Positions 405-59,359 of a stretch of 64,000 nucleotides of DNA are shown here, one piece after another. Origin of the DNA: a virus. The notes under the pieces are model-generated. The model saw nothing but the letters and a program-made list of their open reading frames with translations. It did not search any database and was not told the DNA's origin. Each line of letters starts with the position of its first letter. The first letter of the stretch is position 1. The stretch lies in the IMG/VR virus record IMGVR_UViG_2786546475_000019, positions 974-64,973 of that record; one strand, written 5' to 3'. A program made the position numbers and the translations under genes.

Positions 405-739
405 ATGATAGATCGGCGATTTTGCCTAAATCCAAGGCATCGCTGCCCACGGTATAGGCACAAGGATATTAGACGGTAAAAACCGACATATTGTGAGCTT
501 TCCAGATCGCTTTCCCGAAAACTAAGTGTCCAGTAACTATTTCAAAGTATTTTCACGCGGGGAAAACCGATGAATGGGAGCCGCAGACAGCGTGCCTAAA
601 ATTCAGGCAGGTATAATTGGGGCGTTCCAAGCGAACACGGGCAAGCCAAGCCAAATTCGGCACGCTTGTCAAGTTCCACGGGACTCGCTACACTGTATGC
701 TGTAGCGTTTGATCTTTGACAATTTGGTTTCTAGTTGGC

Positions 740-9531: not shown

Positions 9532-10265
9532 TGGATTGGACTGTAGCTGTAACTGCTTTAATTGCTTCTTTGCTTGGTTCCGGGGCTACTGGTGGTGCGA
9601 TTGCTGCGTACTTCAAATTTCGTACAAACCAGCAAGCTGTAAAATATGAACAGCAAGAAGTGTTATTCAAACAGATAATGGAGAACGCGAACCGAGCAAC
9701 GGCAAGAGTTGATATCTTGCTCAACGAACTTGCGAAACGCGACGAAGCCATCACTGAACGCAACACTAAAATTGGACAGCTCCAAAACGAAGTTCACGCC
9801 CTATCCGAAAAGGTCGATCGGCTCCGCAAGCAGATTAAACAAATGGAGTCTAACCGAATAGCCTACGACACCATGCACGTAGTCGAAGGTATGATGGACA
9901 CGTTCCCGTTCCCAGCTTGGCTACACTCAGTTGGCGAGAATAAATGGTACGTCAACGACGCATATTGCAAAGCATTTGGAATACACCGCGACACGTTCTG
10001 GCAAGGGGTAAACATCTTGGCGATGTACCCCGCTGAAATTGCGGCAAAGTACGTTCAACATGATATGAAAGTGGTAGAGTCCAATATGGGTTCGCTGTTT
10101 ACCGAGCAAGTCAGCAAAAACGTGATGCAACACGATCCACAATCTGAATTTGAGTGTGACATTTACAAGATGCCAATTGTAGCAGGCGGGAAAAGATACA
10201 TTTTCGGGCTGGCAAAGCTTGGGCATGACGTATGGGGCAACAAACTAGCAACTATTTCAGACTAA
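9531..10265 (+). CDS. Membrane-anchored protein with a coiled coil plus a PAS-like C-terminal domain
   Basis: N-terminal TM (VAVTALIASLLGSGATGGAIAAYF), heptad region, then a C-terminal region with PAS-like features. Confidence 0.4.
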   Translation: MDWTVAVTALIASLLGSGATGGAIAAYFKFRTNQQAVKYEQQEVLFKQIMENANRATARVDILLNELAKRDEAITERNTKIGQLQNEVHALSEKVDRLRKQIKQMESNRIAYDTMHVVEGMMDTFPFPAWLHSVGENKWYVNDAYCKAFGIHRDTFWQGVNILAMYPAEIAAKYVQHDMKVVESNMGSLFTEQVSKNVMQHDPQSEFECDIYKMPIVAGGKRYIFGLAKLGHDVWGNKLATISD

Positions 10266-32255: not shown

Positions 32256-33403
32256 TGCCTTTTCTATTTCGTAACGGCCGCTTAGTTTATCAAGACGGCA
32301 AAGCAGTAGTTAGCGACGATACTACAGAGTGCGTCTGTTGTGATCAAATTGGAGAAGATCCTTGTACGTGTGCCGGGCTCCCTGATGCTATTTACGTCTA
32401 CGCTTACGACCGTTGGGCTTTGCAATATGATAGCTTTAGACCCATGTGGACGTGGGATGAATTCTTGTTTGAGAGGCAAACTGATACAACGTGGGAGAGC
32501 GTGGAGCTTGAAACTCTTAGGTGTGACGGAAGTAACTACTTAACGTGGGACGGCGTTGGATTGTTGCAAGGCCCGGGAAATAGTAATCTTGTTTGTGGGT
32601 GTGATCTTTTTGCAAGTCGTCAACCTTATTATGGGTATTATCGAATAGAGGAGTGCCACCCTGATTTCCAATCTTTTAACGCAACAAATCCTACTAGACC
32701 AATTCCTTGTCCTATTGAGAATCAAAATGATTTCGGGTATTCTATCAGTCGCACACTTAGCGGCTTATTCTTGGGATTTGAAGAATCGTATCTAGGGGGA
32801 GGGACTGGATACGATGGCGGCGAGAGCGGAGCCGGTAAACAATACGGCTACGGTCCATGGCAACGAACCTTGGGAAATGTTCAACGACCTGCGTTCCGGG
32901 ACCCATGTTTAGATTATCCTCCGTGGTTAGGAGCTACAGCTTACGGACCTTCGGCCTATGGAGCAGGGAGCATTGATTTTGACGAGTGTTACTCTCTTGA
33001 GTATTTAGAAGGTCCTTCTGAGACGTACCCTCAAGATTGGCAATATACTTGGGCTTTTGGTTGGAGTCAAGCGGAAGCTCCTAACATTGCCAAGTTTCTA
33101 AATTTGATAATTAAAGGCGATGGTACGCTATCTGTTATCTTCCACCGAGGCGTGCCTAATACAACTCACGCGTACGGCAAACCAATTATGTCGCCCCTGA
33201 ATCCTTTAGAAATTTGGGGAGGTACTGCTACAGGATACGACTTCAATGATAGCTCTCCACAAACTTTTGATATTGAAGTAAAGCGACATGGAATATATGT
33301 CACGCCTTTACCGATGACATACACTTTTACGATTCTTCAACAGAATCCGACAATTGATACTCCAGGCCCAACATCGATTTACACAGGGAGTTTTGAAGCA
33401 TGA
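32255..33403 (+). CDS. Hypothetical protein (Gly/Tyr/Trp-rich). ATG start at 32255 preferred over the TTG at 32243
   Basis: gggaga RBS upstream of the ATG. Confidence 0.4.
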   Translation: MPFLFRNGRLVYQDGKAVVSDDTTECVCCDQIGEDPCTCAGLPDAIYVYAYDRWALQYDSFRPMWTWDEFLFERQTDTTWESVELETLRCDGSNYLTWDGVGLLQGPGNSNLVCGCDLFASRQPYYGYYRIEECHPDFQSFNATNPTRPIPCPIENQNDFGYSISRTLSGLFLGFEESYLGGGTGYDGGESGAGKQYGYGPWQRTLGNVQRPAFRDPCLDYPPWLGATAYGPSAYGAGSIDFDECYSLEYLEGPSETYPQDWQYTWAFGWSQAEAPNIAKFLNLIIKGDGTLSVIFHRGVPNTTHAYGKPIMSPLNPLEIWGGTATGYDFNDSSPQTFDIEVKRHGIYVTPLPMTYTFTILQQNPTIDTPGPTSIYTGSFEA

Positions 33404-33612
33404 GCCAAAGCCAACTTGAAGCTTACGCCAGACAACGTAAGTTTAGGCCCAAGATGGAAAATGTTCAAATTTGTGAACAGTGCGACCACTTAATACGTGA
33501 TCGCTACTGTTCCAAATTTGGCAAGTGTCCTGACGCTCAAAAAGATTTCTTTAAAGCCCTTGAACGAAGTAAATGTCCTTTAGAGAAATTTCCGTCGCAG
33601 CTCAGCGAATAG
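33400..33612 (+). CDS. Small Cys-rich protein (CEQCDH...CSKFGKCPD)
   Basis: ORF of 70 aa, last gene of the + strand block. Confidence 0.3.
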   Translation: MSQSQLEAYARQRKFRPKMENVQICEQCDHLIRDRYCSKFGKCPDAQKDFFKALERSKCPLEKFPSQLSE

Positions 33613-33996
33613 AATTCTAACTTGCTTAGGAGTTAACTCTAACAAACGCCCGATTTCCGAATACGTATAGTATTGAAGTCGTAAACTTACAGCCCATCGC
33701 TCCTCGACAGTTAGCCTATCTAGGTCAAACTGATCGAGGAATTCTTCTGCACTTCTTGATAATTCTTCAATATCGCCTAACGCTTCGGTATCATTGTTTG
33801 TTTGCATTTTCTTTCGACGACGGTAAGCGTCAATACCTCTCGACCGTAGTAAGGTTCTTAAGTGTGAGATGAATTTCTTTTCCTCAACTAGCTCATGATA
33901 ATTCTCCCACGCTTGTAAAAATTCCAAAGATAGCGAGCAGTCAAATTTAGTTTCAAACTCTCGCAACAAGTAAACATAATCGTCGATCCTTCGCAT
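33580..33996 (-). CDS. Sigma-factor region-4-like HTH protein (possible ECF-type sigma or anti-sigma-related)
   Basis: C-terminal YSEIGRLLELTPKQVRILFAELRRKF resembles a sigma-70 region 4 HTH. Confidence 0.35.
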   Translation of the reverse strand: MRRIDDYVYLLREFETKFDCSLSLEFLQAWENYHELVEEKKFISHLRTLLRSRGIDAYRRRKKMQTNNDTEALGDIEELSRSAEEFLDQFDLDRLTVEERWAVSLRLQYYTYSEIGRLLELTPKQVRILFAELRRKFL

Positions 33997-37585: not shown

Positions 37586-38236
37586 TTAAACCATATTCAA
37601 AGTAATTGGAGGTTTGTCGCTTTTTAAAAGTTTAGCTAGCTTTTCTAACGCTCGCTTTTCAAGTTGACGAACTCTTTCTCGCGAGATATTAAGAGTTTCC
37701 CCAATAGTCTTAAGAGGAATCCCTTGGGCTCGTAGCCTCAAAACTAAAGCATCTCGACTATTTAACTCAAGAAAAGCTTTTTCTAGAGCAATAAGCTCCT
37801 CTTGCCATTCTATCAAATCCCTATCAAGACATTCTAAAGGTGTAACAGGGTTATTAAATAGCCCGTGTAAGGTTTGAAACATTGGAGCACGAGCTATAGC
37901 AGCTTTAGCTCTGTCAAGATGAGCTGGATTTGGAGATACTTTAATTAACTCCACCTTGGTTTTCATGTAAGTTATCATTCGTTGTTTCACCCACGGAGTG
38001 GCGTAAGTTGAAAACTGATAACCTTTACTAGGGTCAAATTTTTTGACCGCCTGACATAACCCACTCATTCCTTCTTGAATTAAATCGTCTAAATCAAGCT
38101 TAGAATTTTTCTTGGCAAAAGACACCGCTATCTTGATAACCAATCCTTGATTATCTAACACTAACCGATTGAGTGCTTCATCAGCTTCCTTTCTAGCAGA
38201 ATGATATTTTTGTAATAACTCGTCATTAGTATCCAC
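37586..38236 (-). CDS. Sigma-70 family RNA polymerase sigma factor (group 3/4-like, SigF/FliA-sized)
   Basis: Region 2: DLIQEGMSGLCQAVKKFDPSKGYQFSTYATPWVKQRM. Region 4: TIGETLNISRERVRQLEKRALEKL. Confidence 0.65.
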   Translation of the reverse strand: MDTNDELLQKYHSARKEADEALNRLVLDNQGLVIKIAVSFAKKNSKLDLDDLIQEGMSGLCQAVKKFDPSKGYQFSTYATPWVKQRMITYMKTKVELIKVSPNPAHLDRAKAAIARAPMFQTLHGLFNNPVTPLECLDRDLIEWQEELIALEKAFLELNSRDALVLRLRAQGIPLKTIGETLNISRERVRQLEKRALEKLAKLLKSDKPPITLNMV

Positions 38237-43911: not shown

Positions 43912-44387
43912 TCCGGCTCAGTAGTTCCAACGTATCCCATACCTTTGCCAAGAATCTTGTCTTGATAATAATACCATCGGTATGAGAAGATACAGTCTTC
44001 GAAATCTCCGGCCAAGCCTTTATAATATCCAGGCATAGCCAAGTTTGGAGGAGTAAGAGGGCCACGTCGTATGTAACACGGAGATTGATAAAGATACCCA
44101 ACCCGGTTCCATACTTCATGTAAAGCTAACCCTCTCTTATCCCGCTCCTTCAACAACGCTATCATATGCTTCAAAGTCCATTGATAATTTGAATCAGTGG
44201 AACGAACCCATTGAGTTGACGGGTGATTTGCGAAGCATGGTTTACACATTCCTTGACGCCAAAGTCCAACTTCGTCATGTGCCGTTGATAACATTTGGGC
44301 ACACTCAATCGGCATTTTTGTTAAATGGTCCGTGGCCATGTAGCTAGCTGCAAGGACCGGGTCCATATCAAGGAAGAAAACATTCAC
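43881..44387 (-). CDS. Conserved phage protein of unknown function (N-terminal FFLDMDPVLAASYMATDHLTKMPIECAQMLSTAH)
   Basis: ORF of 168 aa. The N-terminal motif looks familiar from phage/viral proteins but I cannot assign a family. Confidence 0.35.
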   Translation of the reverse strand: MNVFFLDMDPVLAASYMATDHLTKMPIECAQMLSTAHDEVGLWRQGMCKPCFANHPSTQWVRSTDSNYQWTLKHMIALLKERDKRGLALHEVWNRVGYLYQSPCYIRRGPLTPPNLAMPGYYKGLAGDFEDCIFSYRWYYYQDKILGKGMGYVGTTEPEWLLHLKGKL

Positions 44388-44770
44388 GCCCCAAGTCCAA
44401 GCGATTTGATGGAAGCCCTTTTGAGTGCTGTCAAGGTAACAACACGTCCAAGTAGCTTGGAAAGTGTTTCTTCGAAGTTATCAAGTTGCTCCGATAATTT
44501 GTATTCGAAGCCGTTCAAAAGTATCACTTCTTCCAAGTTCTCAGAAACCCAAGAATTTAAGTCTTGGTCTTTCACAAGATACTTACCGTCTTGAATCGTT
44601 AACTTGCCATTGATAGTTGGGCCTTTCAATTCGTCTCGCCAAATTTTCACGTTTTCAGGAGCGGTTATGTTAATTGAAGCAGCTCCTGATCCTGCATCAA
44701 AGATTGTTACCCGAACGTCGTTCCCAATTGTAAATGATTGCGACGCCCAGCGTTTAAGAGTTAACGCCAT
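44384..44770 (-). CDS. Hypothetical protein
   Basis: ORF of 128 aa. Confidence 0.35.
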   Translation of the reverse strand: MALTLKRWASQSFTIGNDVRVTIFDAGSGAASINITAPENVKIWRDELKGPTINGKLTIQDGKYLVKDQDLNSWVSENLEEVILLNGFEYKLSEQLDNFEETLSKLLGRVVTLTALKRASIKSLGLGA

Positions 44771-48650: not shown

Positions 48651-48850
48651 ACCACGCTCCTTGTTGCTTTAGTTTCATCTCCAAGGCCCACGACAGGAAC
48701 TATCAATTCCCCGTTTGGGACAGGGACCGTGACTTCTTCTGGCAATTCAAACCAGTAGTTATAGTGTCGTCCACAAGGGAATTCCACTTTGATAGCTACC
48801 TTAGCTACTGAATCCCTTGTACTTTCTTTGATTCCTTCTTGGGTAATCAT
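48647..48850 (-). CDS. Hypothetical protein
   Basis: ORF of 67 aa. Confidence 0.3.
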   Translation of the reverse strand: MITQEGIKESTRDSVAKVAIKVEFPCGRHYNYWFELPEEVTVPVPNGELIVPVVGLGDETKATRSVV

Positions 48851-48910
48851 TGTTAAACTTTCTGTAAAGTGAGTATAGTCCGTAAATAAACACTAATAAG
48901 TAAAGCATCC

Positions 48911-48940
48911 TGCTCCCCTTTGCTCCCCTTTGCTCCCCTT
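48911..48940. repeat. tgctcccctt x3 tandem 10-bp repeat (minus strand aaggggagca x3), intergenic
   Basis: Seen directly. Confidence 0.85.
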
Positions 48941-48951
48941 TGCTTCATTCG

Positions 48952-49341
48952 CTAGTTAAGACCTGGAAATGTACCCATGATACTTCCAAAGTGTTCCAAA
49001 CCCCCTAGCCCCAAGTAGTACCGCTCCACATCGATATCTAATAAATGATAGTGTGCGTTGTACAGCTCTAAATAATCTAAATATCGTTTGATAATTTCAG
49101 CTTGTGTCTCTCCTTTACAAAGAGACTCACGACTTATTGCATATACGTAACGATATATTCCCTTATTCTTAGGGACTGGGTTCTCCCATAAATGTTGTTG
49201 CACGTAATCTACGCCTAGAAGCACTAGGCTGTCAACGTACGTGCAAGTATCAGCGTCCATCTTATGTCCAATGATACTGAGATGTAGCTTTAGGTCCATC
49301 TCCAAAGCCCATGGACCTACTTGCTTTTGCCATTCGGTCAT
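48952..49341 (-). CDS. Hypothetical protein
   Basis: ORF of 129 aa. Confidence 0.35.
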   Translation of the reverse strand: MTEWQKQVGPWALEMDLKLHLSIIGHKMDADTCTYVDSLVLLGVDYVQQHLWENPVPKNKGIYRYVYAISRESLCKGETQAEIIKRYLDYLELYNAHYHLLDIDVERYYLGLGGLEHFGSIMGTFPGLN

Positions 49342-49508
49342 TTGTCTCTCCGTACAGGTAGATGGTAATATTGGCCGTGTTCTTCAAACAAACATCTGAT
49401 AAAAATGTTCACTTTTGACATTTCTGTCCACGGCCCTTTAGAGGCCATCCAAATTACAAAAAGTCCGGCCCCCAATATTAAAGCCATTGATAAAGCTTTG
49501 TGTTTCAT
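49338..49508 (-). CDS. Small membrane protein (start refined to MKHKALSMALILG...)
   Basis: Conserved RBS gaaaggaatatcATG. The ORF-track start at 49550 lies inside the upstream element. Confidence 0.35.
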   Translation of the reverse strand: MKHKALSMALILGAGLFVIWMASKGPWTEMSKVNIFIRCLFEEHGQYYHLPVRRDK

Positions 49509-49520
49509 GATATTCCTTTC

Positions 49521-49578
49521 TAAACAAGTAAACAACGGTCCACGCTCCATGATACTTGGAGCGTGGTACGTTGGCTAC
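49521..49578 (-). promoter_or_regulatory. Conserved palindromic element copy A: GTAGCCAACGTACC-hairpin-GGACCGTTGTTTAC (minus-strand sense), immediately 5' of the RBS
   Basis: Four copies share conserved 14-bp arms with variable, self-complementary inner stems. Confidence 0.6.
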
Positions 49579-49586
49579 TCTTACCG

Positions 49587-50147
49587 TTAGGTAGACTCAA
49601 ACGTTACGATATCCGGGTCTTGTAGCCCTCCGCCTAAGTCGGAAGCTTTCAACTCAAATTCGTAATTAACTCCACGGAACCCCGTGAAGTTATCACCGAC
49701 CCAGCCGTCGAAAGTGAACTCAACCCGCACCGTGACAGTAGGAGCGGGAATAGCTACTTCCTCAATGAATACGTCGGTCCAGCCTTGACCGCCAGAACCT
49801 CCATTAAGCGGGTTAGTGTTGTTTCCCCAATTCATAGGAAATTTTATAGTTTCCGTCACGCTCACGGGACCATTTGGGCCTTCTACCACGACAGTGTGGT
49901 CAACCATTTGATAAGTTCTCACGTGAACTGCAAGCCACTCCAAACGATTGTCAACCCACCAAGTTGCAGTTAAGTTAACTTTTGTAACGTCCCCGGCTGA
50001 GACTTCCGTGACTCCCATTGAGGCGGAGCTGTAGTAGTCTCCGGAAGTGCCGTGCACCGGGTTGTTGCCGCCTCCGCCTACTTGACCGTAAGCAGTTGTT
50101 GCTACGAGCAACAGAATAGTAAACAACACAAGTGATAAAATACGCAT
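49587..50147 (-). CDS. Secreted protein (signal peptide MRILSLVLFTILLLVATTAYGQ)
   Basis: ORF of 186 aa. Confidence 0.45.
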   Translation of the reverse strand: MRILSLVLFTILLLVATTAYGQVGGGGNNPVHGTSGDYYSSASMGVTEVSAGDVTKVNLTATWWVDNRLEWLAVHVRTYQMVDHTVVVEGPNGPVSVTETIKFPMNWGNNTNPLNGGSGGQGWTDVFIEEVAIPAPTVTVRVEFTFDGWVGDNFTGFRGVNYEFELKASDLGGGLQDPDIVTFEST

Positions 50148-50176
50148 AGTCTCTCCTTAAAAGAGTAAAGATTTGT

Positions 50177-50188
50177 GGTCCGTGGACC
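50177..50188. promoter_or_regulatory. GGTCCGTGGACC 12-mer (second exact copy), intergenic
   Basis: Exact match to 2566-2577. Confidence 0.5.
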
Positions 50189-50189
50189 A

Positions 50190-51014
50190 TCATTTAGTAG
50201 GACGACACAATGCTCGTGTCTTCCAGTAGTTGAAGCTACGTTCCAACTCTTTGACGAACGCTTCCGCATCCATCTGAGTATCAGTGCCGCCGTCGCTGCC
50301 GAAGTGGTTGTGCAGCAACGTTTCAGGTTTCATCGGAGCATTCAGGTCTTCTAAGTCCACCCCAGCGTTGACTGAGATGATATTCCACCGCCCGTAGGCT
50401 TGTTCTCCGCTCTCATAGAGCACGTCTCGATGATAAAGGACGACTTCGACGTGGCAGGCGGCGGCCTTATTTACGCCGTCCAAGTATTCATGCCGACGTG
50501 GCGACTCGCCGTCACGTCGTGGCTTATACTCCACGATCAAAGTATCATTGTTCCGAAGCTTACGAATAGGGCAATAAACCCCGTTCGCGTCAATCGGAAC
50601 GATGATAACTCCGTCTCTATAGCCGGGACGCTGCTCGTGAAATCGGGCTTGTACCTGTTCAACGAGCACTTCGTCTGAGAACTTCCAGTGGGAGAACTCA
50701 CTATTGGCTGTCTGCCGACTAACGAAGTCGTGGACCGCTACGTCTGGAGCTGGGTTGCTCCAGTTCTGTTGCGTAACCTGCAACACGGTGGGTTCTCCAT
50801 TAGGGTGGATCGCCGCTTTGTCCCTTGGCTCGTAGTCATAAATGAAGGTATCTCCGTCCGAGGATTGAAGGGCATTACGCCCCGATCCATCTTCTTCTGC
50901 GTCGCCGTAGGGGACGTAGCCGTTTTTAAGAAGTATGATAAATTCGTCGTTACTTAACATTTGTTGGTTGTCAGTTTTCATCTCGCTCTCCTGTTTATTT
51001 AACAAGCTTTCCAT
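50190..51014 (-). CDS. Hypothetical protein
   Basis: ORF of 274 aa. Confidence 0.4.
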   Translation of the reverse strand: MESLLNKQESEMKTDNQQMLSNDEFIILLKNGYVPYGDAEEDGSGRNALQSSDGDTFIYDYEPRDKAAIHPNGEPTVLQVTQQNWSNPAPDVAVHDFVSRQTANSEFSHWKFSDEVLVEQVQARFHEQRPGYRDGVIIVPIDANGVYCPIRKLRNNDTLIVEYKPRRDGESPRRHEYLDGVNKAAACHVEVVLYHRDVLYESGEQAYGRWNIISVNAGVDLEDLNAPMKPETLLHNHFGSDGGTDTQMDAEAFVKELERSFNYWKTRALCRPTK

Positions 51015-51283
51015 TCAGCAATAAGTTTAGCAGCTTCGGGTGAGACTTTCACCCACTGTTTCACTGAAATGTCCTCATGGGTTTCAACAGCTGCCGTGAT
51101 ACGTGTGTTGGTCTTCGGACCATTAGCCGCTAAGCCAAAGAGTCCACCGCACTCAGAACTCCAGTAAAGGACCATTCGAGCGTTTCGCAATTTGATAGGC
51201 TTTCCAGCTTCGGGGTCTTTGTCCGCCATACCGATTATAACGGCTCGTCCGTTTTCCCCGCAACAAACTAGATACATCGACAT
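50999..51283 (-). CDS. Hypothetical protein
   Basis: ORF of 94 aa. Confidence 0.35.
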   Translation of the reverse strand: MSMYLVCCGENGRAVIIGMADKDPEAGKPIKLRNARMVLYWSSECGGLFGLAANGPKTNTRITAAVETHEDISVKQWVKVSPEAAKLIAEWKAC

Positions 51284-51284
51284 T

Positions 51285-51629
51285 TCAGTCTCCTCTTATC
51301 AATTGATAAATTTCTTTGTAAGTATGTACTGGCATATTATACTTGTCCGCTATATCCTGCCAGTTCTCTTCCCACCAGCTAAAAGAATGACACTGACCCC
51401 CAACTTTCAACACTCCAAAGTCTTGGTTGACTTCTACTTTGCGGCCGTGTAAAATTCCGAGTGTTATCAGTTTGCCGTAGCCGTAGCCGTAGCCGTAGCC
51501 GTAGCCGTCGCCGTCGCCGTAGCCGTCGCCGTAGCCGTAGCCGTAGCCGTAGCCGTCGCCGTAGCCGTAGCCGGTCCCGTAGCCGGTCCCGTAGCCGGTC
51601 CCGTAGCCGTCGCCGTGGTTACTTAACAT
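51285..51629 (-). CDS. Gly-Tyr repeat protein: N-terminal (GYG/DGYG)n low-complexity region (~50 aa) plus a ~60-aa C-terminal domain
   Basis: RBS taaggaactatcaATG. Encoded by a (GCCGTA/GCCGTC)n hexanucleotide array at ~51470-51610. Confidence 0.45.
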   Translation of the reverse strand: MLSNHGDGYGTGYGTGYGTGYGYGDGYGYGYGYGDGYGDGDGYGYGYGYGYGKLITLGILHGRKVEVNQDFGVLKVGGQCHSFSWWEENWQDIADKYNMPVHTYKEIYQLIRGD

Positions 51630-51726
51630 TTGATAGTTCCTTATAAATGATCAACTTTGGTCTTTGCTTCACGCGGACCGATGTACGGTTCCAACGTAAA
51701 TAAGTCATTGATATTTTCACATAGTT

Positions 51727-51933
51727 TCATCTTGCTCTCCTGTTTGCTCGCTTAGCGAGTCGTTGAGTTTCAGGATCGTCCGGAAGTATCACTAGCGATC
51801 CTGCGGTCTTATGGCCGTACACCATGTACCCTGTAGCACGCTCCGTGGTGCTACAGGTTGCACACGTCATTGTGTGCGGAAGTACCTCTAAGCGTTCACT
51901 ATCAATTTGTGTTTTGCAGTTTATGCAGTTCAC
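51727..51933 (-). CDS. TraR/DksA-like C4 zinc-finger protein
   Basis: CINC...15 aa...CATC in a 68-aa protein, typical of the phage TraR-like family. Confidence 0.4.
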   Translation of the reverse strand: MNCINCKTQIDSERLEVLPHTMTCATCSTTERATGYMVYGHKTAGSLVILPDDPETQRLAKRANRRAR

Positions 51934-52178
51934 TCTTGCTCCTTCCAGAACTTGATATTTTTGACAACCCCTTCGGCGAGGTCAGCGATAGAATCTATCA
52001 CTTCTCGCTCACAACCGGGAATGGTGTAGAAGTAATTAAACTCCCCACCCTCGGTGAAGGTAACAAGTTGCGTGAAGCGACCCTTGTTTATCTTGGACAA
52101 GTGCCAGTAGACTTCGCGAACGCCTTCGTTAAGAAAAATGTAACAGGGAGTTTCGCCAATGACTTTAGTTTCGTACAT
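51930..52178 (-). CDS. Hypothetical protein (start refined to MYETKVIGE...)
   Basis: The internal ATG is preceded by the conserved tgaaaggattatcATG start context. Confidence 0.35.
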   Translation of the reverse strand: MYETKVIGETPCYIFLNEGVREVYWHLSKINKGRFTQLVTFTEGGEFNYFYTIPGCEREVIDSIADLAEGVVKNIKFWKEQE

Positions 52179-52188
52179 GATAATCCTT

Positions 52189-52518
52189 TCAGATTGAGTA
52201 AGTGCGAGATTGAAGTGCTTGTTTCGGTTCACGGCCCTTGTACTTAGTTCCAGGCTGCTCGAACCACGTTCCACGTGAGATGTGAATATCCAAGTCAAGA
52301 TATTCATACTTCGGGACGTTATAATAGTCTGCTAAGTCGTAAACGTCCAGATTATCAAGATCTGGAATTGGTCGCAACGTAATATGCGACAGTACGTAAG
52401 CCGCCACATTACGTTGCTTACGCTTGAGCGTTGGGTTAGCCGCTTGGACCGTGGCCCACAGCCGCTCAAAAGACTCTAGAGTTGGACACAACTCAATGAT
52501 AGATACTCTCTTAGACAT
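52189..52518 (-). CDS. Hypothetical protein (start refined to MSKRVSIIEL...)
   Basis: Avoids the 185-bp overlap with the upstream gene. gggag RBS. Confidence 0.3.
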   Translation of the reverse strand: MSKRVSIIELCPTLESFERLWATVQAANPTLKRKQRNVAAYVLSHITLRPIPDLDNLDVYDLADYYNVPKYEYLDLDIHISRGTWFEQPGTKYKGREPKQALQSRTYSI

Positions 52519-53062
52519 TGGCCACGGCTCCCATCTTAAGAACCTTGGCACACATTGCCAACAATTTGGCGTGGTGTCGGGGAGCTTCAACATGGTTCTC
52601 GAACCATGAATCATCCGCCCCACATGGTAGCTTGACTCCCCCGGCTCGGAAGTATTGATAATTGTGCCGTGCGACACGGGCATTGTCCCGTGCATTGAGC
52701 AAGCACTCCCGTCTCGTGGCCCGTGGCGGACGAAGATGGTCGAATTTCATCAAAAGAACGCTATCAATGGAAGATTTCCCGCATCCTGCGTCTCGCAGCG
52801 TGCGAATATCATCCGCTGCGGCTTTGCGAGCGGTTCGAACCCACTCAATATGGGCCAGAGCTTCCCGATAAAGGTCGATCTGTTCGCTGATCCAGTAGCC
52901 AAGGGTGGCCTCAAAATCATGGAGAGTTACTTGATAGTCCAGAGTTCCGACCCAACGTAGCGGGGTGCCTGGAATGTAAGCTTTGTAGTCGTGGCCGGAA
53001 GCCTCGACCTCGACAGGCAAATCGTTGACGTAGAACATTCCAAGAGGTTGCATAGCTTTCAT
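52511..53062 (-). CDS. Hypothetical protein (start refined to MKAMQPL...)
   Basis: Conserved start context. The ORF-track extension to 53152 runs through element copy B. Confidence 0.4.
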   Translation of the reverse strand: MKAMQPLGMFYVNDLPVEVEASGHDYKAYIPGTPLRWVGTLDYQVTLHDFEATLGYWISEQIDLYREALAHIEWVRTARKAAADDIRTLRDAGCGKSSIDSVLLMKFDHLRPPRATRRECLLNARDNARVARHNYQYFRAGGVKLPCGADDSWFENHVEAPRHHAKLLAMCAKVLKMGAVANV

Positions 53063-53087
53063 GATAATCCTTTCAAGTGAGAAAAAA

Positions 53088-53134
53088 GTAAACAACGGTC
53101 CCTGCACCTCACGAGTGCATGGTACGTTGGCTAC
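53088..53134 (-). promoter_or_regulatory. Conserved palindromic element copy B
   Basis: gtaaacaacggtcc ... ggtacgttggctac on the + strand. Confidence 0.6.
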
Positions 53135-53144
53135 TGGCTTGCTA

Positions 53145-53570
53145 CTAAACAATTGCCCTCTGATTCAGTTCAGGAACAACAGTGTGAGCTATCAATATCC
53201 CAAGCTTGACGCCCCAGTTGACGAGTCTTTGATAAGCTTCGTCCAGCTCCGCCAACGTCTTATATTTAAGGGTCAGCCCGCTGATTAGCAAAGGCTCACC
53301 GTCGCGAGTCGCTCGCAACACGCATTTCCCGTCCCCGGTTGTGATAGAAAAGCTGCATTTATCAGCTAGTCGTAGCTGCGGTATGCCAACCATGTTCAAT
53401 TTTCGTCGAACGTATTGGCGAGCCGCCTGGGAGTCCGTAGCATACGTGACCTTGAGGTGCTCAATAATTTGTTGAGTGTCGGACGTGCCATACAGCTCCT
53501 GAAGTCGCTGATCGGTCTCAAACATCAGAAGTTGCTCGATGAAATTCCAAGTCGTGTGATTGTTAATCAT
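53145..53570 (-). CDS. Hypothetical protein
   Basis: ORF of 141 aa with the conserved start context. Confidence 0.4.
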   Translation of the reverse strand: MINNHTTWNFIEQLLMFETDQRLQELYGTSDTQQIIEHLKVTYATDSQAARQYVRRKLNMVGIPQLRLADKCSFSITTGDGKCVLRATRDGEPLLISGLTLKYKTLAELDEAYQRLVNWGVKLGILIAHTVVPELNQRAIV

Positions 53571-53591
53571 GATAATCCTTTCAAGAAATTA

Positions 53592-53638
53592 GTAAACAAC
53601 GGTCCATGCACCTCATGGGTGCACGGTACGTCAGCTAC
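53592..53638 (-). promoter_or_regulatory. Conserved palindromic element copy C
   Basis: gtaaacaacggtcc ... ggtacgtcagctac. Confidence 0.6.
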
Positions 53639-53645
53639 CAACTAC

Positions 53646-54014
53646 TTATACTTCAGTCCGCCACTTAAGCCAGAATTCCAACATAGCGTTAAAGTTGTGG
53701 TAAGTCCCGTCGTCTTCGACGTTATGATAATCTTCAAGGTCCAACGGGGCGAACTCCTCAAGTGTCTCACGCAACGGTCTGACGGTGTGTGAACCATTCG
53801 TTGAGTAAGAATATGAAACTTCCGTTAACGCCTCACATCGCACAATAAAGGTTTCGAAAGTTTTCTCAAGCCGAGATTGGAGCCTGCGATCTTTGATTTC
53901 TCGAACTATCAGTACCGGGGTTCCTGGTCCTTTGACCAATAACCCTTTCTTGATTTCGATTCGGTTCTCTTTGACTTCTCGACAGATTTTGAACAACATA
54001 GACTTAGCTTTCAT
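53646..54014 (-). CDS. Hypothetical protein
   Basis: ORF of 122 aa with the conserved start context. Confidence 0.4.
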   Translation of the reverse strand: MKAKSMLFKICREVKENRIEIKKGLLVKGPGTPVLIVREIKDRRLQSRLEKTFETFIVRCEALTEVSYSYSTNGSHTVRPLRETLEEFAPLDLEDYHNVEDDGTYHNFNAMLEFWLKWRTEV

Positions 54015-54038
54015 GATAATCCTTTCAAGTGAGAAACA

Positions 54039-54086
54039 GTAAACAACGGTCCGGGCTACCCGTGGGCAGCACGGTACGTTGGCTAT
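54039..54086 (-). promoter_or_regulatory. Conserved palindromic element copy D
   Basis: gtaaacaacggtcc ... ggtacgttggctat. Confidence 0.6.
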
Positions 54087-54142
54087 TGATAGACCTAGGC
54101 CCGAAGGCCCAGGATTAAATCCAGATTGTCAAAGATCAAAAT

Positions 54143-54285
54143 TATCATTTGTGTCCCGCCACTGGCGGAAATGATATGATAGCTTACAGACCTACGGTCA
54201 ATCTATTCTATACTTAATATCGGCAATTGGGAAGTAAGAAAATAGATTATTTTTGAAAATAATCAAAACTTTATCATATCATTTT
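54143..54285. promoter_or_regulatory. Operator-like region. It has the palindrome TATCATTT-gtgtcccgccactggcgg-AAATGATA. It also has the inverted pair AAATGATATGATA (54169-81) and TATCATATCATTT (54273-85)
   Basis: Seen directly. The same architecture recurs at 59145-59359. Confidence 0.55.
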
Positions 54286-54627
54286 TTACACTGTTTCCTT
54301 CTCAATGATAATCCCATTGATTTCGAATTGGTTCGTGACCATATGCCAATGCATATCATTATACAGGAACCGATAGCAAGTTCTCCGATACCTGAACTCG
54401 TGACTAGGCCCATGGGCCGTGTACTCGGGTGTAGGCCATTTATCAATGTACCCTGTTAGAGACACGGACCTTTCATCTGGAAAAAAGAATTCAGGCTCTT
54501 GGACCTTGATCAATTCATCGTTGGACAAGTTACGGAGCCAAAGCCTATCTTCATCAAGATGATAATTTGCCTGCCACTCAAACCAAGCTTCAAACTCAGT
54601 CATGAAACAGTATGGGTTTCTGTTCAT
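54286..54627 (-). CDS. Hypothetical protein (start refined to MNRNPYCF...)
   Basis: gggagttaacATG RBS. Avoids the 175-bp overlap with the Dam gene. Confidence 0.35.
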   Translation of the reverse strand: MNRNPYCFMTEFEAWFEWQANYHLDEDRLWLRNLSNDELIKVQEPEFFFPDERSVSLTGYIDKWPTPEYTAHGPSHEFRYRRTCYRFLYNDMHWHMVTNQFEINGIIIEKETV

Positions 54628-59017: not shown

Positions 59018-59059
59018 CACGCTACACGTATCACGCTACACGTATCACGCTACACGTAC
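59018..59059. repeat. cacgctacacgtat x3 tandem 14-bp repeats (iteron-like), followed by the ACGT-rich palindrome tacgcgta
   Basis: Seen directly. Confidence 0.85.
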
Positions 59060-59144
59060 GCGTAGCACGTGGGTACGTGCCAGGGCCAAAGACCTTGAGT
59101 TCTCTTTTAAGTCTCGGAACTGACGTGTAAATTAGTAAGCGGTT

Positions 59145-59359
59145 ATCATTTTGCGTGAGCAAATGATAATTCTCGCGTGCTCCCGCGTGTCCCGCACGTG
59201 CGACTATTTAAATACGCGACGTGCGTAAATGATATGATACATGGTTTTCAAAATACTTGAAAATATTTTCAAAATACGGGGCAATCCTGCCCGGTTTTAT
59301 TCGTAGCTATAGGGGGAAAGTAGACTGTTTTACTTTCCAAAACGACTATCATATCATTT
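59145..59359. promoter_or_regulatory. Operator-like region. It has the palindrome TTATCATTTtgcgtgagcAAATGATAA (59144-69). It also has the inverted pair AAATGATATGATA (59227-39) and TATCATATCATTT (59347-59). Inside it are the 16-bp palindrome ttgaaaatattttcaa and two copies of ttttcaaaatac
   Basis: Seen directly. Same architecture as 54143-54285. Confidence 0.55.

Follow-up and report, generated by a model that had tools for sequence, protein, structure and literature searches.

RESULTS

Four copies of a hairpin-start module precede orphan genes of a marine phage

The 64-kb window analyzed here (positions 974 to 64,973 of IMG/VR record IMGVR_UViG_2786546475_000019) and the remaining ~8 kb make up a ~72-kb marine (Tara Oceans) contig of an uncultured phage, the ends of which close on each other. 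Its minus strand carries four copies of a module of ~75 nucleotides (nt), in which a two-turn stem-loop is followed by a shared ribosome-binding/start sequence and the orientation of which is that of the genes. An earlier note on this DNA had placed four palindromic elements before the genes starting at 49508, 53062, 53570, and 54014, and we found all four at these places on the minus strand. Read on that strand, the module runs from a left arm, GTAGCCAACGTACC, through 19 to 23 variable nt to a right arm, GGACCGTTGTTTAC, and then through a U-rich spacer of 5 to 12 nt to TGAAAGGATTATC-ATG; the note had given the inner length as 17 to 23 nt and the spacer as ~10 nt, and both values needed correction.

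The hairpin of copy A lies at 54037-54088 (arms at 54086-54073 and 54052-54039, with an inner segment of 20 nt), that of copy B at 53590-53640 (arms at 53638-53625 and 53605-53592), that of copy C at 53086-53136 (arms at 53134-53121 and 53101-53088), and that of copy D, which has a 10-bp upper stem and a 7-nt loop, at 49526-49580 (arms at 49578-49565 and 49541-49528). Copies A to D score 67.2, 73, 74.4, and 70.5 bits, respectively, with a covariance model of the four. The start regions of copies A (54012-54027, with Shine-Dalgarno sequence AAGGA and the ATG at 54014), B (53568-53583), and C (53060-53075) match TGAAAGGATTATCATG exactly, and that of copy D (49506-49521) reads AGAAAGGAATATCATG, with 2 mismatches to TGAAAGGATTATCATG. 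As the earlier note had observed, the start region also occurs alone before the gene at 52178. This lone start region, E (52176-52191, minus strand), is an exact match beginning at 52191; it has no hairpin and no predicted structure (z = +1.9), and the gene upstream, at 52189-52518, uses its TGA as stop codon.

Both arms are highly conserved, with substitutions at 3 of 112 positions across the four copies. The left arm has 0 to 2 mismatches per copy and occurs within 2 mismatches only at 54086, 53638, 53134, and 49578, a number of matches that was reached by none of 100 dinucleotide shuffles of the window. The right arm is identical in all four copies and is found exactly only at 54052, 53605, 53101, and 49541. 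The 7 start-region matches were likewise reached by none of 100 shuffles. Copies A and C share an identical 32-mer that comprises the spacer, the start region, and the first 10 coding nt. Copy C is a mosaic, with the inner stem of copy B but the spacer, start region, and first 10 coding nt of copy A.

All four copies fold into the same nested hairpin

The 14-nt arms are inverted repeats of each other at 10 positions, as had been noted: 10 of 14 are Watson-Crick complementary, and one more forms a G-T pair. The earlier note had proposed folding the RNA of each copy, and when this was done, all four gene-sense RNAs gave one common nested hairpin. From outer to inner, it consists of AGUAG/UUACU (with an invariant G.U pair), a C/U mismatch, CAACG/CGUUG, a 2x2 internal loop (UA/AC), CC/GG, a variable stem of 6 to 8 bp, and a loop of 4 to 7 nt; like the G.U pair, the C/U mismatch and the internal loop are invariant. 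The 5 + 5 + 8 to 10 pairs amount to 20 to 22 stacked positions, or about two helical turns, and the predicted energies are -19 to -30 kcal/mol.

The inner segment had been described as different in every copy yet always self-complementary. The second part of this description held: when only the inner segment was shuffled and the arms were kept fixed, the real copies folded better than 96 to 99.95% of the shuffles (P = 0.0005 to 0.04, with values of 0.009, 0.0005, 0.04, and 0.0005 for copies A, B, C, and D), and the Fisher combined P value was 2e-7, a figure to be read with the caveat that copies B and C are related and so do not provide independent tests. The fold z scores of copies B and D were -3.7 and -4.65. 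The first part did not hold, since the inner segments of copies B and C are alike at 15 of 19 positions and two inner pairs (G-C and C-G) are unchanged across all copies. In the model-based alignment, 91% of the cells are standard pairs, compared with 32 to 51% when the partners are slid. Four upper-stem pairs have changed on both sides, a number reached by 4 of 500 shuffles; a manual register for copy A raises it to five. The inner stem quoted for copy A in the note includes a G.U wobble. This covariation among four paralogues, two of them related, is real but thin.

The strongest structural argument for a hairpin is the variable arm spacing. Between the arms lie 19, 19, 20, or 23 nt, depending on the copy, so that the arms can act together only if the inner segment loops out by folding. 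Taken together, these results support the view of the earlier note that compensatory change marks the element as a selected hairpin rather than a plain promoter.

Several observations bear on the strand on which the structure forms. The mRNA-sense strand has ~10 G.U cells versus 3 A/C cells, and copy B reaches -23.7 kcal/mol in the sense orientation versus -18.3 in the antisense orientation. Moreover, the left-arm substitutions of copy B (CCAACG to CUGACG, i.e., C to U and A to G) keep pairing, as U.G and G.U wobbles, in the sense RNA only. The pair counts and the copy B wobbles favor structure on the coding-sense strand, although they do not prove that it is RNA.

The hairpins lie directly behind stop codons and just ahead of orphan genes

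Copies B, C, and D start 7, 10, and 8 nt past the stop codon of the preceding gene (gene A, gene B, and a gene of 186 amino acids [aa], respectively). The hairpins end 19 to 25 nt ahead of the ATG, and because this leaves 5 to 12 nt between hairpin and Shine-Dalgarno sequence, there is no room for a promoter in between.

On the minus strand, the modules are followed by gene A (53646-54014; 122 aa), which has no Pfam or PHROG match; gene B (53145-53570; 141 aa), an ORFan; gene C (52511-53062; 183 aa), which is followed by the overlapping gene at 52189-52518; and gene D (49338-49508; 56 aa), which is overlapped by a 129-aa gene (48952-49341). The lone start region heads gene E (51930-52178; 82 aa). 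Searches among 5.8 billion proteins returned no homologue of gene C outside its own cluster, and no family matches were obtained for the genes behind the modules. Whole-cassette duplication was rejected as an origin of the copies, since the downstream genes share no similarity and so are not paralogues. The other intercistronic gaps of the same operon hold no structure comparable to the module. The start region is only partly special, because nearly every gene of the phage has GGA or GGAG in its Shine-Dalgarno sequence and several share the ..TATC-ATG spacer.

Copy A follows a control region that shares motifs with two others

Copy A stands at the end of a 271-nt noncoding region. The noncoding control region upstream of it (54089-54285, minus strand) holds TTTGATCTTTGACAAT, a GC hairpin, and an inverted TATCATATCAT pair, and its motifs are common to the two other control regions of the genome. 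Because such a region precedes copy A, this copy is most simply the leader element that opens a transcription unit of its own, with copies B to D being intercistronic.

The window has two exact copies of the 16-mer TTTGATCTTTGACAAT, at 54140-54125 (minus strand) and 708-723 (plus strand). Both occurrences are followed within 20 to 35 nt by strong hairpins and then by a gene with a related start region. The 16-mer is a candidate for a promoter or for the site of a regulator; no -10 element could be recognized. Between it and copy A lies the GC hairpin CCTGGGCC-TTCG-GGCCTAGG (54113-54094). The 11-mer TATCATATCAT occurs four times in the window, as two inverted pairs whose members are ~90 to 110 bp apart (54171-54181/54272-54282 and 59229-59239/59347-59357). 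The second pair sits in the divergent primase/parB control region, and the pairs are probably operators or divergent promoter elements.

The plus-strand leader of the gene at 856 (708-858; z = -8.5) parallels this architecture. Behind the 16-mer (708-723) come a hairpin of 22 bp that is interrupted by a single C/A mismatch (740-792), a GC-rich hairpin that resembles a terminator and has a U-rich tail (794-819), and the related start GGAAGGAATACCACTATG. It scores 9 to 15 bits with the four-copy model and hence lies outside the family. In the 740-819 region, the apical TCCAA(A/G)TATC resembles the loop of copy D, and two adjacent single nucleotide polymorphisms (SNPs) in the stem separate strains (C/A plus G-C versus U-A plus G.U).

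Other repeats were seen in the noncoding parts of the window. Three tandem iterons, ACGTGTAGCGTGAT, lie between the parB-like and primase genes (~59020-59065), and a relative, L012, has seven copies of a different 14-mer at the equivalent place (9794-9933); the array is likely an origin or a ParB-binding array typical of this phage family. Close by, at ~59145-59175, is the palindrome ATTATCATTT-N8-AAAATGATAA. About 1.6 kb of repeat-dense noncoding DNA (1-855 of the window and 19900-21500 of L099) contains heptamer runs (CATGGAC/CAAGGAC), a long palindrome (57-135), a 31-mer present twice (263-325), and nested GTGCG..CGCAC palindromes; in the assembly of another strain, this region contains a poly-G run and then Ns. 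It could be a genome end, a packaging region, or an origin region. GAAGCG runs (2161-2205) close the gene at 856-2217, and a 20-mer is repeated three times in the next gap (2273-2334). AGCAAAGGGG likewise occurs three times at ~48905-48935, in the 101-nt gap before the gene at 48850.

The module was found in a single phage lineage

The earlier note had proposed scanning related phage genomes with a covariance model. Applied to this genome, such a model yielded only the four known copies: with filters off, the next best match in the window scored 11.5 bits, and the remaining 8 kb gave no copy, with weak 15- to 18-bit matches inside the repeat-rich noncoding region. Pattern searches of larger collections added none. 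Five exact-pattern scans (IMG/VR, JGI metagenomes, and GTDB with one genome per species) returned six isolated matches only. These scored 12 to 21 bits with the model and had no second family feature, and the five that were read directly lack an inner hairpin and lie in DNA that is GC rich or looks like coding sequence; we read all six as chance. In the GTDB scan, the exact core matched once among 185,579 species genomes, in a Pseudomonas metagenome-assembled genome (MAG), a match taken as chance uninspected. When IMG/VR was scanned for the start region, the 83 single matches obtained were about as many as chance would give, and the hairpin was present in none of them. A blastn search of 7 kb against 50,697 phage records gave no match. 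With Rfam, no match reached the gathering score in the window, the 49300-54400 region gave chance-level matches at E below 10 only, and no known RNA family, ribozyme, or tRNA-like element was matched. The idea that the inner stem-loops are antisense guides acting elsewhere in the genome was also considered, and it was dropped when no targets were found.

In twelve contigs from different samples, the A-B-C order is unchanged and no cassette has been gained or lost. The strain variants are 99.1 to 99.6% identical, their elements are identical, and their SNPs are clustered in tracts. Between 50400 and 52400, strain differences fall in short tracts (in the DUF3228 gene, a repeat open reading frame [ORF], a Zn-finger gene, and the gene at 52189-52518) with long identical stretches between them, a pattern expected from recombination among co-occurring strains. 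The repeat ORF (51285-51629, minus strand) consists mostly of GYG/GDG repeats with a DNA period of 12 nt and encodes 114 versus 96 aa in different strains.

The module genes lie in the nonstructural arm of the genome

Two gene blocks converge in the window. The structural block (13.2-33.4 kb, plus strand) contains the terminase, P22-like coat protein, and tail genes. The nonstructural block (58.6 to 33.6 kb, minus strand) contains genes for a primase-helicase and a Dam-type methylase, the orphan-gene region bearing the modules, and genes for a helicase, a CsrA homologue, an endonuclease V-like protein, MazG, a sigma-70-family protein, ThyA, a deoxynucleoside monophosphate kinase, and an exonuclease. 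From their place in this replication/nucleotide-metabolism arm, we infer that the module genes are early genes. A small Cys-rich ORF (~33390-33583, plus strand) fills the junction of the two blocks, and no canonical terminator, sought there as a yardstick, was found at 33.4-33.6 kb.

The earlier note had counted two phage sigma-70-family genes. One was borne out (37586-38236, with matches to regions 2 and 4) and is the sole solid member of that family; the second candidate (33580-33996) has a region 4 match only, which is subthreshold. The CsrA homologue (44384-44770, minus strand; 128 aa) has a CsrA domain at residues 3 to 48 (Pfam E = 1e-9), which retains the conserved arginine-containing C-terminal strand, plus an 80-aa extension. 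Neither an RNA polymerase nor an RNase III was seen among the phage ORFs scanned, and no RAYT gene was found in the phage.

No cultured relative of the phage was found. Relatives of the primase beyond its own cluster are at most 43% identical, and the primase operons of the nearest relatives end a few genes past the methylase gene; three of these relatives (L011 to L013) have a short primase operon and no comparable repeats. Because the operons of the relatives stop so soon after the methylase gene, the element-bearing region is an expansion in this phage lineage. NCBI lists the phage primase as a protein of an "Acidobacteria bacterium" MAG. The contig encodes terminase, coat, tail, and replication proteins, and its ends join; it is most likely a phage genome that was binned into that MAG.

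DISCUSSION

The module as a possible RNA processing or stability hairpin

We think it most likely that the module exerts its effect at the level of the mRNA and not as a promoter. Judging by analogy with characterized phage elements, we consider it quite possible, if short of probable, that the module is a leader and intercistronic RNA processing or stability hairpin joined to a common translation start. Of the roles that the earlier note had listed, an RNase III-like processing site appears to fit the anatomy and positions best. RNase III substrates span two A-helical turns (~22 bp), and their internal loops lead to single-strand cleavage that leaves 3' hairpins as stability determinants (PMC3867540). 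The predicted hairpins have the ~20 to 22 bp and the internal loop of such substrates, and they are placed as RNase III sites of the T7 type are, in a leader and between cistrons, on the presumably transcribed sense strand. The second 22-bp hairpin in the gene 856 leader, behind the same 16-mer that precedes copy A, also counts in favor of this reading.

If the module works in this way, the transcribed arms would pair together and the inner segment with itself, giving an irregular hairpin of about two turns. This hairpin would be cut or bound, either by a double-strand-specific endonuclease or by a sequence-specific factor that recognizes the loops and the conserved lower stem, and the polycistronic RNA would be split into units with defined, hairpin-protected ends. 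Every orphan gene would thereby gain an identical unstructured, U-rich, strong translation start. Secondarily, the 50 to 75 nt of shared identity allow recombination between copies, which explains the mosaic pattern of copies A, B, and C, and such recombination may also place new orphan genes under control of the module. Transcription through the element, its cleavage or binding, and the effects on stability and translation are all inferred.

Several points weigh against this reading. RNase III makes little sequence demand on its substrates, and that enzyme alone would leave unaccounted for the fact that 28 arm positions, unpaired ones included, hardly vary. This invariance could reflect an extra sequence-specific reader, for which the phage CsrA homologue is a candidate, or concerted evolution by recombination. 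Concerted evolution is visible here, because the 32-mer of copies A and C runs 10 nt into unrelated coding sequences while the inner stem of copy C is that of copy B, and the arms could owe their invariance to recent gene conversion of this kind. The covariation rests on few events, because the four copies are paralogues in one genome lineage and copies B and C are related. The strain variants are uninformative about constraint, since they have no SNP between 52400 and 55340, and no homologous element was found in other phages in the collections searched. Finally, the minimum free energies of copies A, C, and D are about equal on both strands, so that, by energy, a DNA hairpin or an antisense RNA would also be possible.

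Alternative readings

At the DNA level, the arms might instead be bound by RNA polymerase with a phage or host sigma factor, or by a repressor, with transcription starting just before the Shine-Dalgarno sequence. The distance between right arm and ATG (19 to 25 nt) is one that a promoter could have, a sigma-70-family protein is encoded in the phage genome, and the arm words GGACC, GTAGC, and ACGT recur in other noncoding regions of the genome. ECF (extracytoplasmic function) promoters have ~16 to 17 nt between AAC and CGT, and sigma-70 promoters have 16 to 18 nt between their hexamers. The ECF-type or phage sigma promoter suggested by the earlier note is contradicted by AAC-to-CGT distances of 28, 28, 29, and 32 nt, which are both too variable and outside this range, and neither a hexamer scan nor direct reading found a sigma-70-type hexamer pair held at a consistent spacing of 16 to 18 nt in the four copies. 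A sigma-70 promoter made of TTTACT with GATTAT (spacers of 11 to 17 nt) or with TATCAT was also discarded, as the spacing over both pairings varies from 11 to 20 nt with the copy and the transcript would start inside coding sequence. The covariance model found the motif at no other gene start in the window and the remaining 8 kb, including those of the structural genes, where phage sigma activity would be expected. A conventional promoter is thus unlikely. The invariant asymmetry of the arms does recall the ESAS elements of mycobacteriophages, in which -35/-10 hexamers lie inside imperfect inverted repeats (PMC11373665), but a rigid dimer could not follow the 4-bp shift in arm spacing (19 to 23 nt), and the self-complementary, covarying inner segment would be left without a role; we consider a DNA-level promoter or operator of any kind quite improbable. 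It is also unlikely that the CAACG..CGUUG hairpin and the U-rich UUUACU form a partial intrinsic terminator or attenuator that grades operon expression or insulates cassettes, like the stem-loop half of the promoter-early stem-loops (PeSLs) of T4-like phages, which have been shown to terminate (PMC2839356). The right arm ends in a U-rich stretch (UUUACUUUUUUCU in copy C), the stem tops are GC rich, the hairpins stand directly behind stop codons, and a consensus scan calls copies B and D terminator-like. However, all four copies score -2 to -12 on a d'Aubenton-Carafa-type scale on which the trp and lambda tR2 terminators reach +21 to +30; the U-run is broken by AC, and part of it pairs with the left arm; the putative control region of copy A precedes the hairpin instead of following it; and a terminator has no need of conserved arms. 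Since there is no promoter room (5 to 12 nt) between hairpin and next Shine-Dalgarno sequence, efficient termination would silence genes B and C and everything downstream. A terminator therefore fits weakly, with partial attenuation being possible, and an antiterminator has no specific support.

Two further alternatives take account of the sequence conservation or of the mosaic copies. The module could be an operator for a sequence-specific phage RNA-binding protein, such as the CsrA homologue acting on two GGA motifs, one in the Shine-Dalgarno sequence and one where the right arm has its base; this protein would switch the translation of a small regulon of orphan early genes in the manner of T4 RegA or CsrA targets. 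Sequence change is concentrated in the apical stem, with hardly any in the 16-nt start region or at arm positions that are mismatched or unpaired; one start region (E) stands free of a hairpin, as expected of a separate operator; and the phage CsrA-domain protein has kept its arginine-containing strand. The two GGA motifs are 25 to 31 nt apart, which is within the range of spacings that a CsrA dimer bridges. On the other hand, the upstream GGA is paired in the predicted fold, no apical loop contains a GGA, and GGA or GGAG Shine-Dalgarno sequences precede almost every gene of this phage. We think such an operator improbable. More speculatively, and as something of a long shot, the hairpin and start region could be the operator of a phage-private posttranscriptional regulon. 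The invariant lower stem, the mismatches, and the GGA start would be recognized by an RNA-binding protein of the phage, most obviously the 128-aa CsrA homologue; this protein would toggle fast-evolving orphan host-takeover genes together, and new genes would join by recombination. Orphan early genes often have anti-host or anti-defense functions. Alternatively, the module could be a PeSL-like or attC-like recombination unit, a portable stretch of homology or a recombinase site that moves orphan cassettes and affects expression only secondarily. The copies flank unrelated ORFans in a region wholly lacking from the nearest relatives, some are mosaic (copy C combines the inner stem of B with the spacer, start, and 10 coding nt of A), their shape recalls that of integron attC sites (AAC...GTT arms, a variable apex, and a post-ORF position), and PeSLs move genes in this way in T4-like phages (PMC2839356, PMC4122927). 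Nevertheless, the twelve contigs keep the A-B-C order without cassette change, scans of ~70 of the ORFs revealed no integrase or recombinase, copy B has lost the AAC triplet and its top strand pairs better than its bottom one, attC sites are longer and have extrahelical bases where the element has symmetric mismatches, and the element was not found in the other genomes or metagenomes searched. We regard this last alternative as very unlikely.

Comparison with known systems

The modules form a new sequence family of a known general kind, the phage intergenic regulatory repeats tied to gene starts, among which it is set apart by its folded, covarying core. The family is tiny and belongs to one uncultured lineage, and the function proposed for it here rests on analogy. 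Like integron attC sites and REP elements, the hairpins are imperfect palindromes in which the apex varies and the outer parts (AAC...GTT; 5' GTAG) are conserved, and they lie behind ORFs in orphan-gene arrays; the fixed start region behind each copy is a difference from both. A classification as attC was rejected: the R''/R' boxes RYYYAAC/GTTRRRY are matched at 6 of 7 and 5 of 7 positions, AAC is GAC in copy B, whose top strand folds better, the mismatches are symmetric, and the Pfam scans of part of the ORFs gave no integrase. REP/BIME elements are present in many copies in a host chromosome, and this class was ruled out by the absence of the exact core from the 185,579 species genomes other than the one Pseudomonas MAG match read as chance. 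N4-type hairpin promoters have a stem of 5 to 7 bp, a 3-nt loop, and a gene for a virion RNA polymerase. They were ruled out as well, as the stems here are 20 to 22 bp and the loops 4 to 7 nt, no ORF is large enough for such a polymerase, and no polymerase domain was found.

In the early region of T7, as reportedly described by Dunn and Studier, RNase III sites lie in the common leader and between the early cistrons, just upstream of the next ribosome-binding site. The hairpins described here resemble these sites in being irregular, in having about two turns and a conserved internal loop, in their placement, and in being related within one genome. They differ in that the loop of T7 R1.1 is reportedly larger and asymmetric, whereas here there are a small symmetric 2x2 loop and a C/U mismatch, and in that no identical start region is fused to the T7 sites; sequence homology is not expected. 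PeSLs are also conserved intergenic stem-loop motifs, of ~50 to 70 nt; they flank ORFans in a hyperplastic region, and their copies recombine (PMC2839356, PMC4122927). The present copies flank ORFans in a lineage-specific region and show a mosaic pattern. In contrast to the present module, for which no promoter is detectable and terminator scores are marginal, PeSLs combine a consensus sigma-70 early promoter with an effective terminator, and indels and minicircles have been demonstrated for them, whereas no rearranged strain contigs were seen here.

The closest published architecture is that of the SAS and ESAS elements of Cluster K mycobacteriophages, of which the module is an analogue rather than a member. 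SAS is a 13-bp sequence, GGGATAGGAGCCC (with at most 2 mismatches), located 3 to 9 bp before the start codons of a subset of nonstructural genes, and in about half of the cases, imperfect inverted repeats whose spacer varies lie upstream of it (Pope et al. 2011, PMC3203893). These ESAS repeats are 17 bp long with a spacer of 4 to 14 bp, RNA pairing is not supported by their departures from symmetry, SigA-like -35/-10 hexamers lie within them at a distance of 17 to 18 bp, and they are now read as SigA promoters with an operator (Adephagia study, PMC11373665); the function of SAS/ESAS was still called unclear in 2025 (PMC12699233). The likeness lies in a short asymmetric sequence with a ribosome-binding site just before the start codons of a subset of nonstructural genes, always in gene orientation. 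The sequences themselves (GGGATAGGAGCCC versus TGAAAGGATTATC here) show no similarity, host and phage lineage are unrelated, and the copy numbers are 11 to 19 SAS and about half as many ESAS, versus five start regions and four hairpins in the present phage. Unlike ESAS, the hairpins have 14-nt arms, a covarying stem-loop spacer of 19 to 23 nt, departures that support pairing, and no promoter hexamers. SAS/ESAS have been known since 2011 and are functionally unresolved, and the same architecture recurs here in an unrelated marine phage with clear folding evidence. If the RNA reading is true, the module would provide a second, cleaner system for studying how orphan early genes come under common posttranscriptional control and how genes are recruited to such control. 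If the bolder proposal of a phage-private regulon is true, that regulon would be a functional counterpart of SAS/ESAS in an unrelated lineage, pointing to a general phage strategy.

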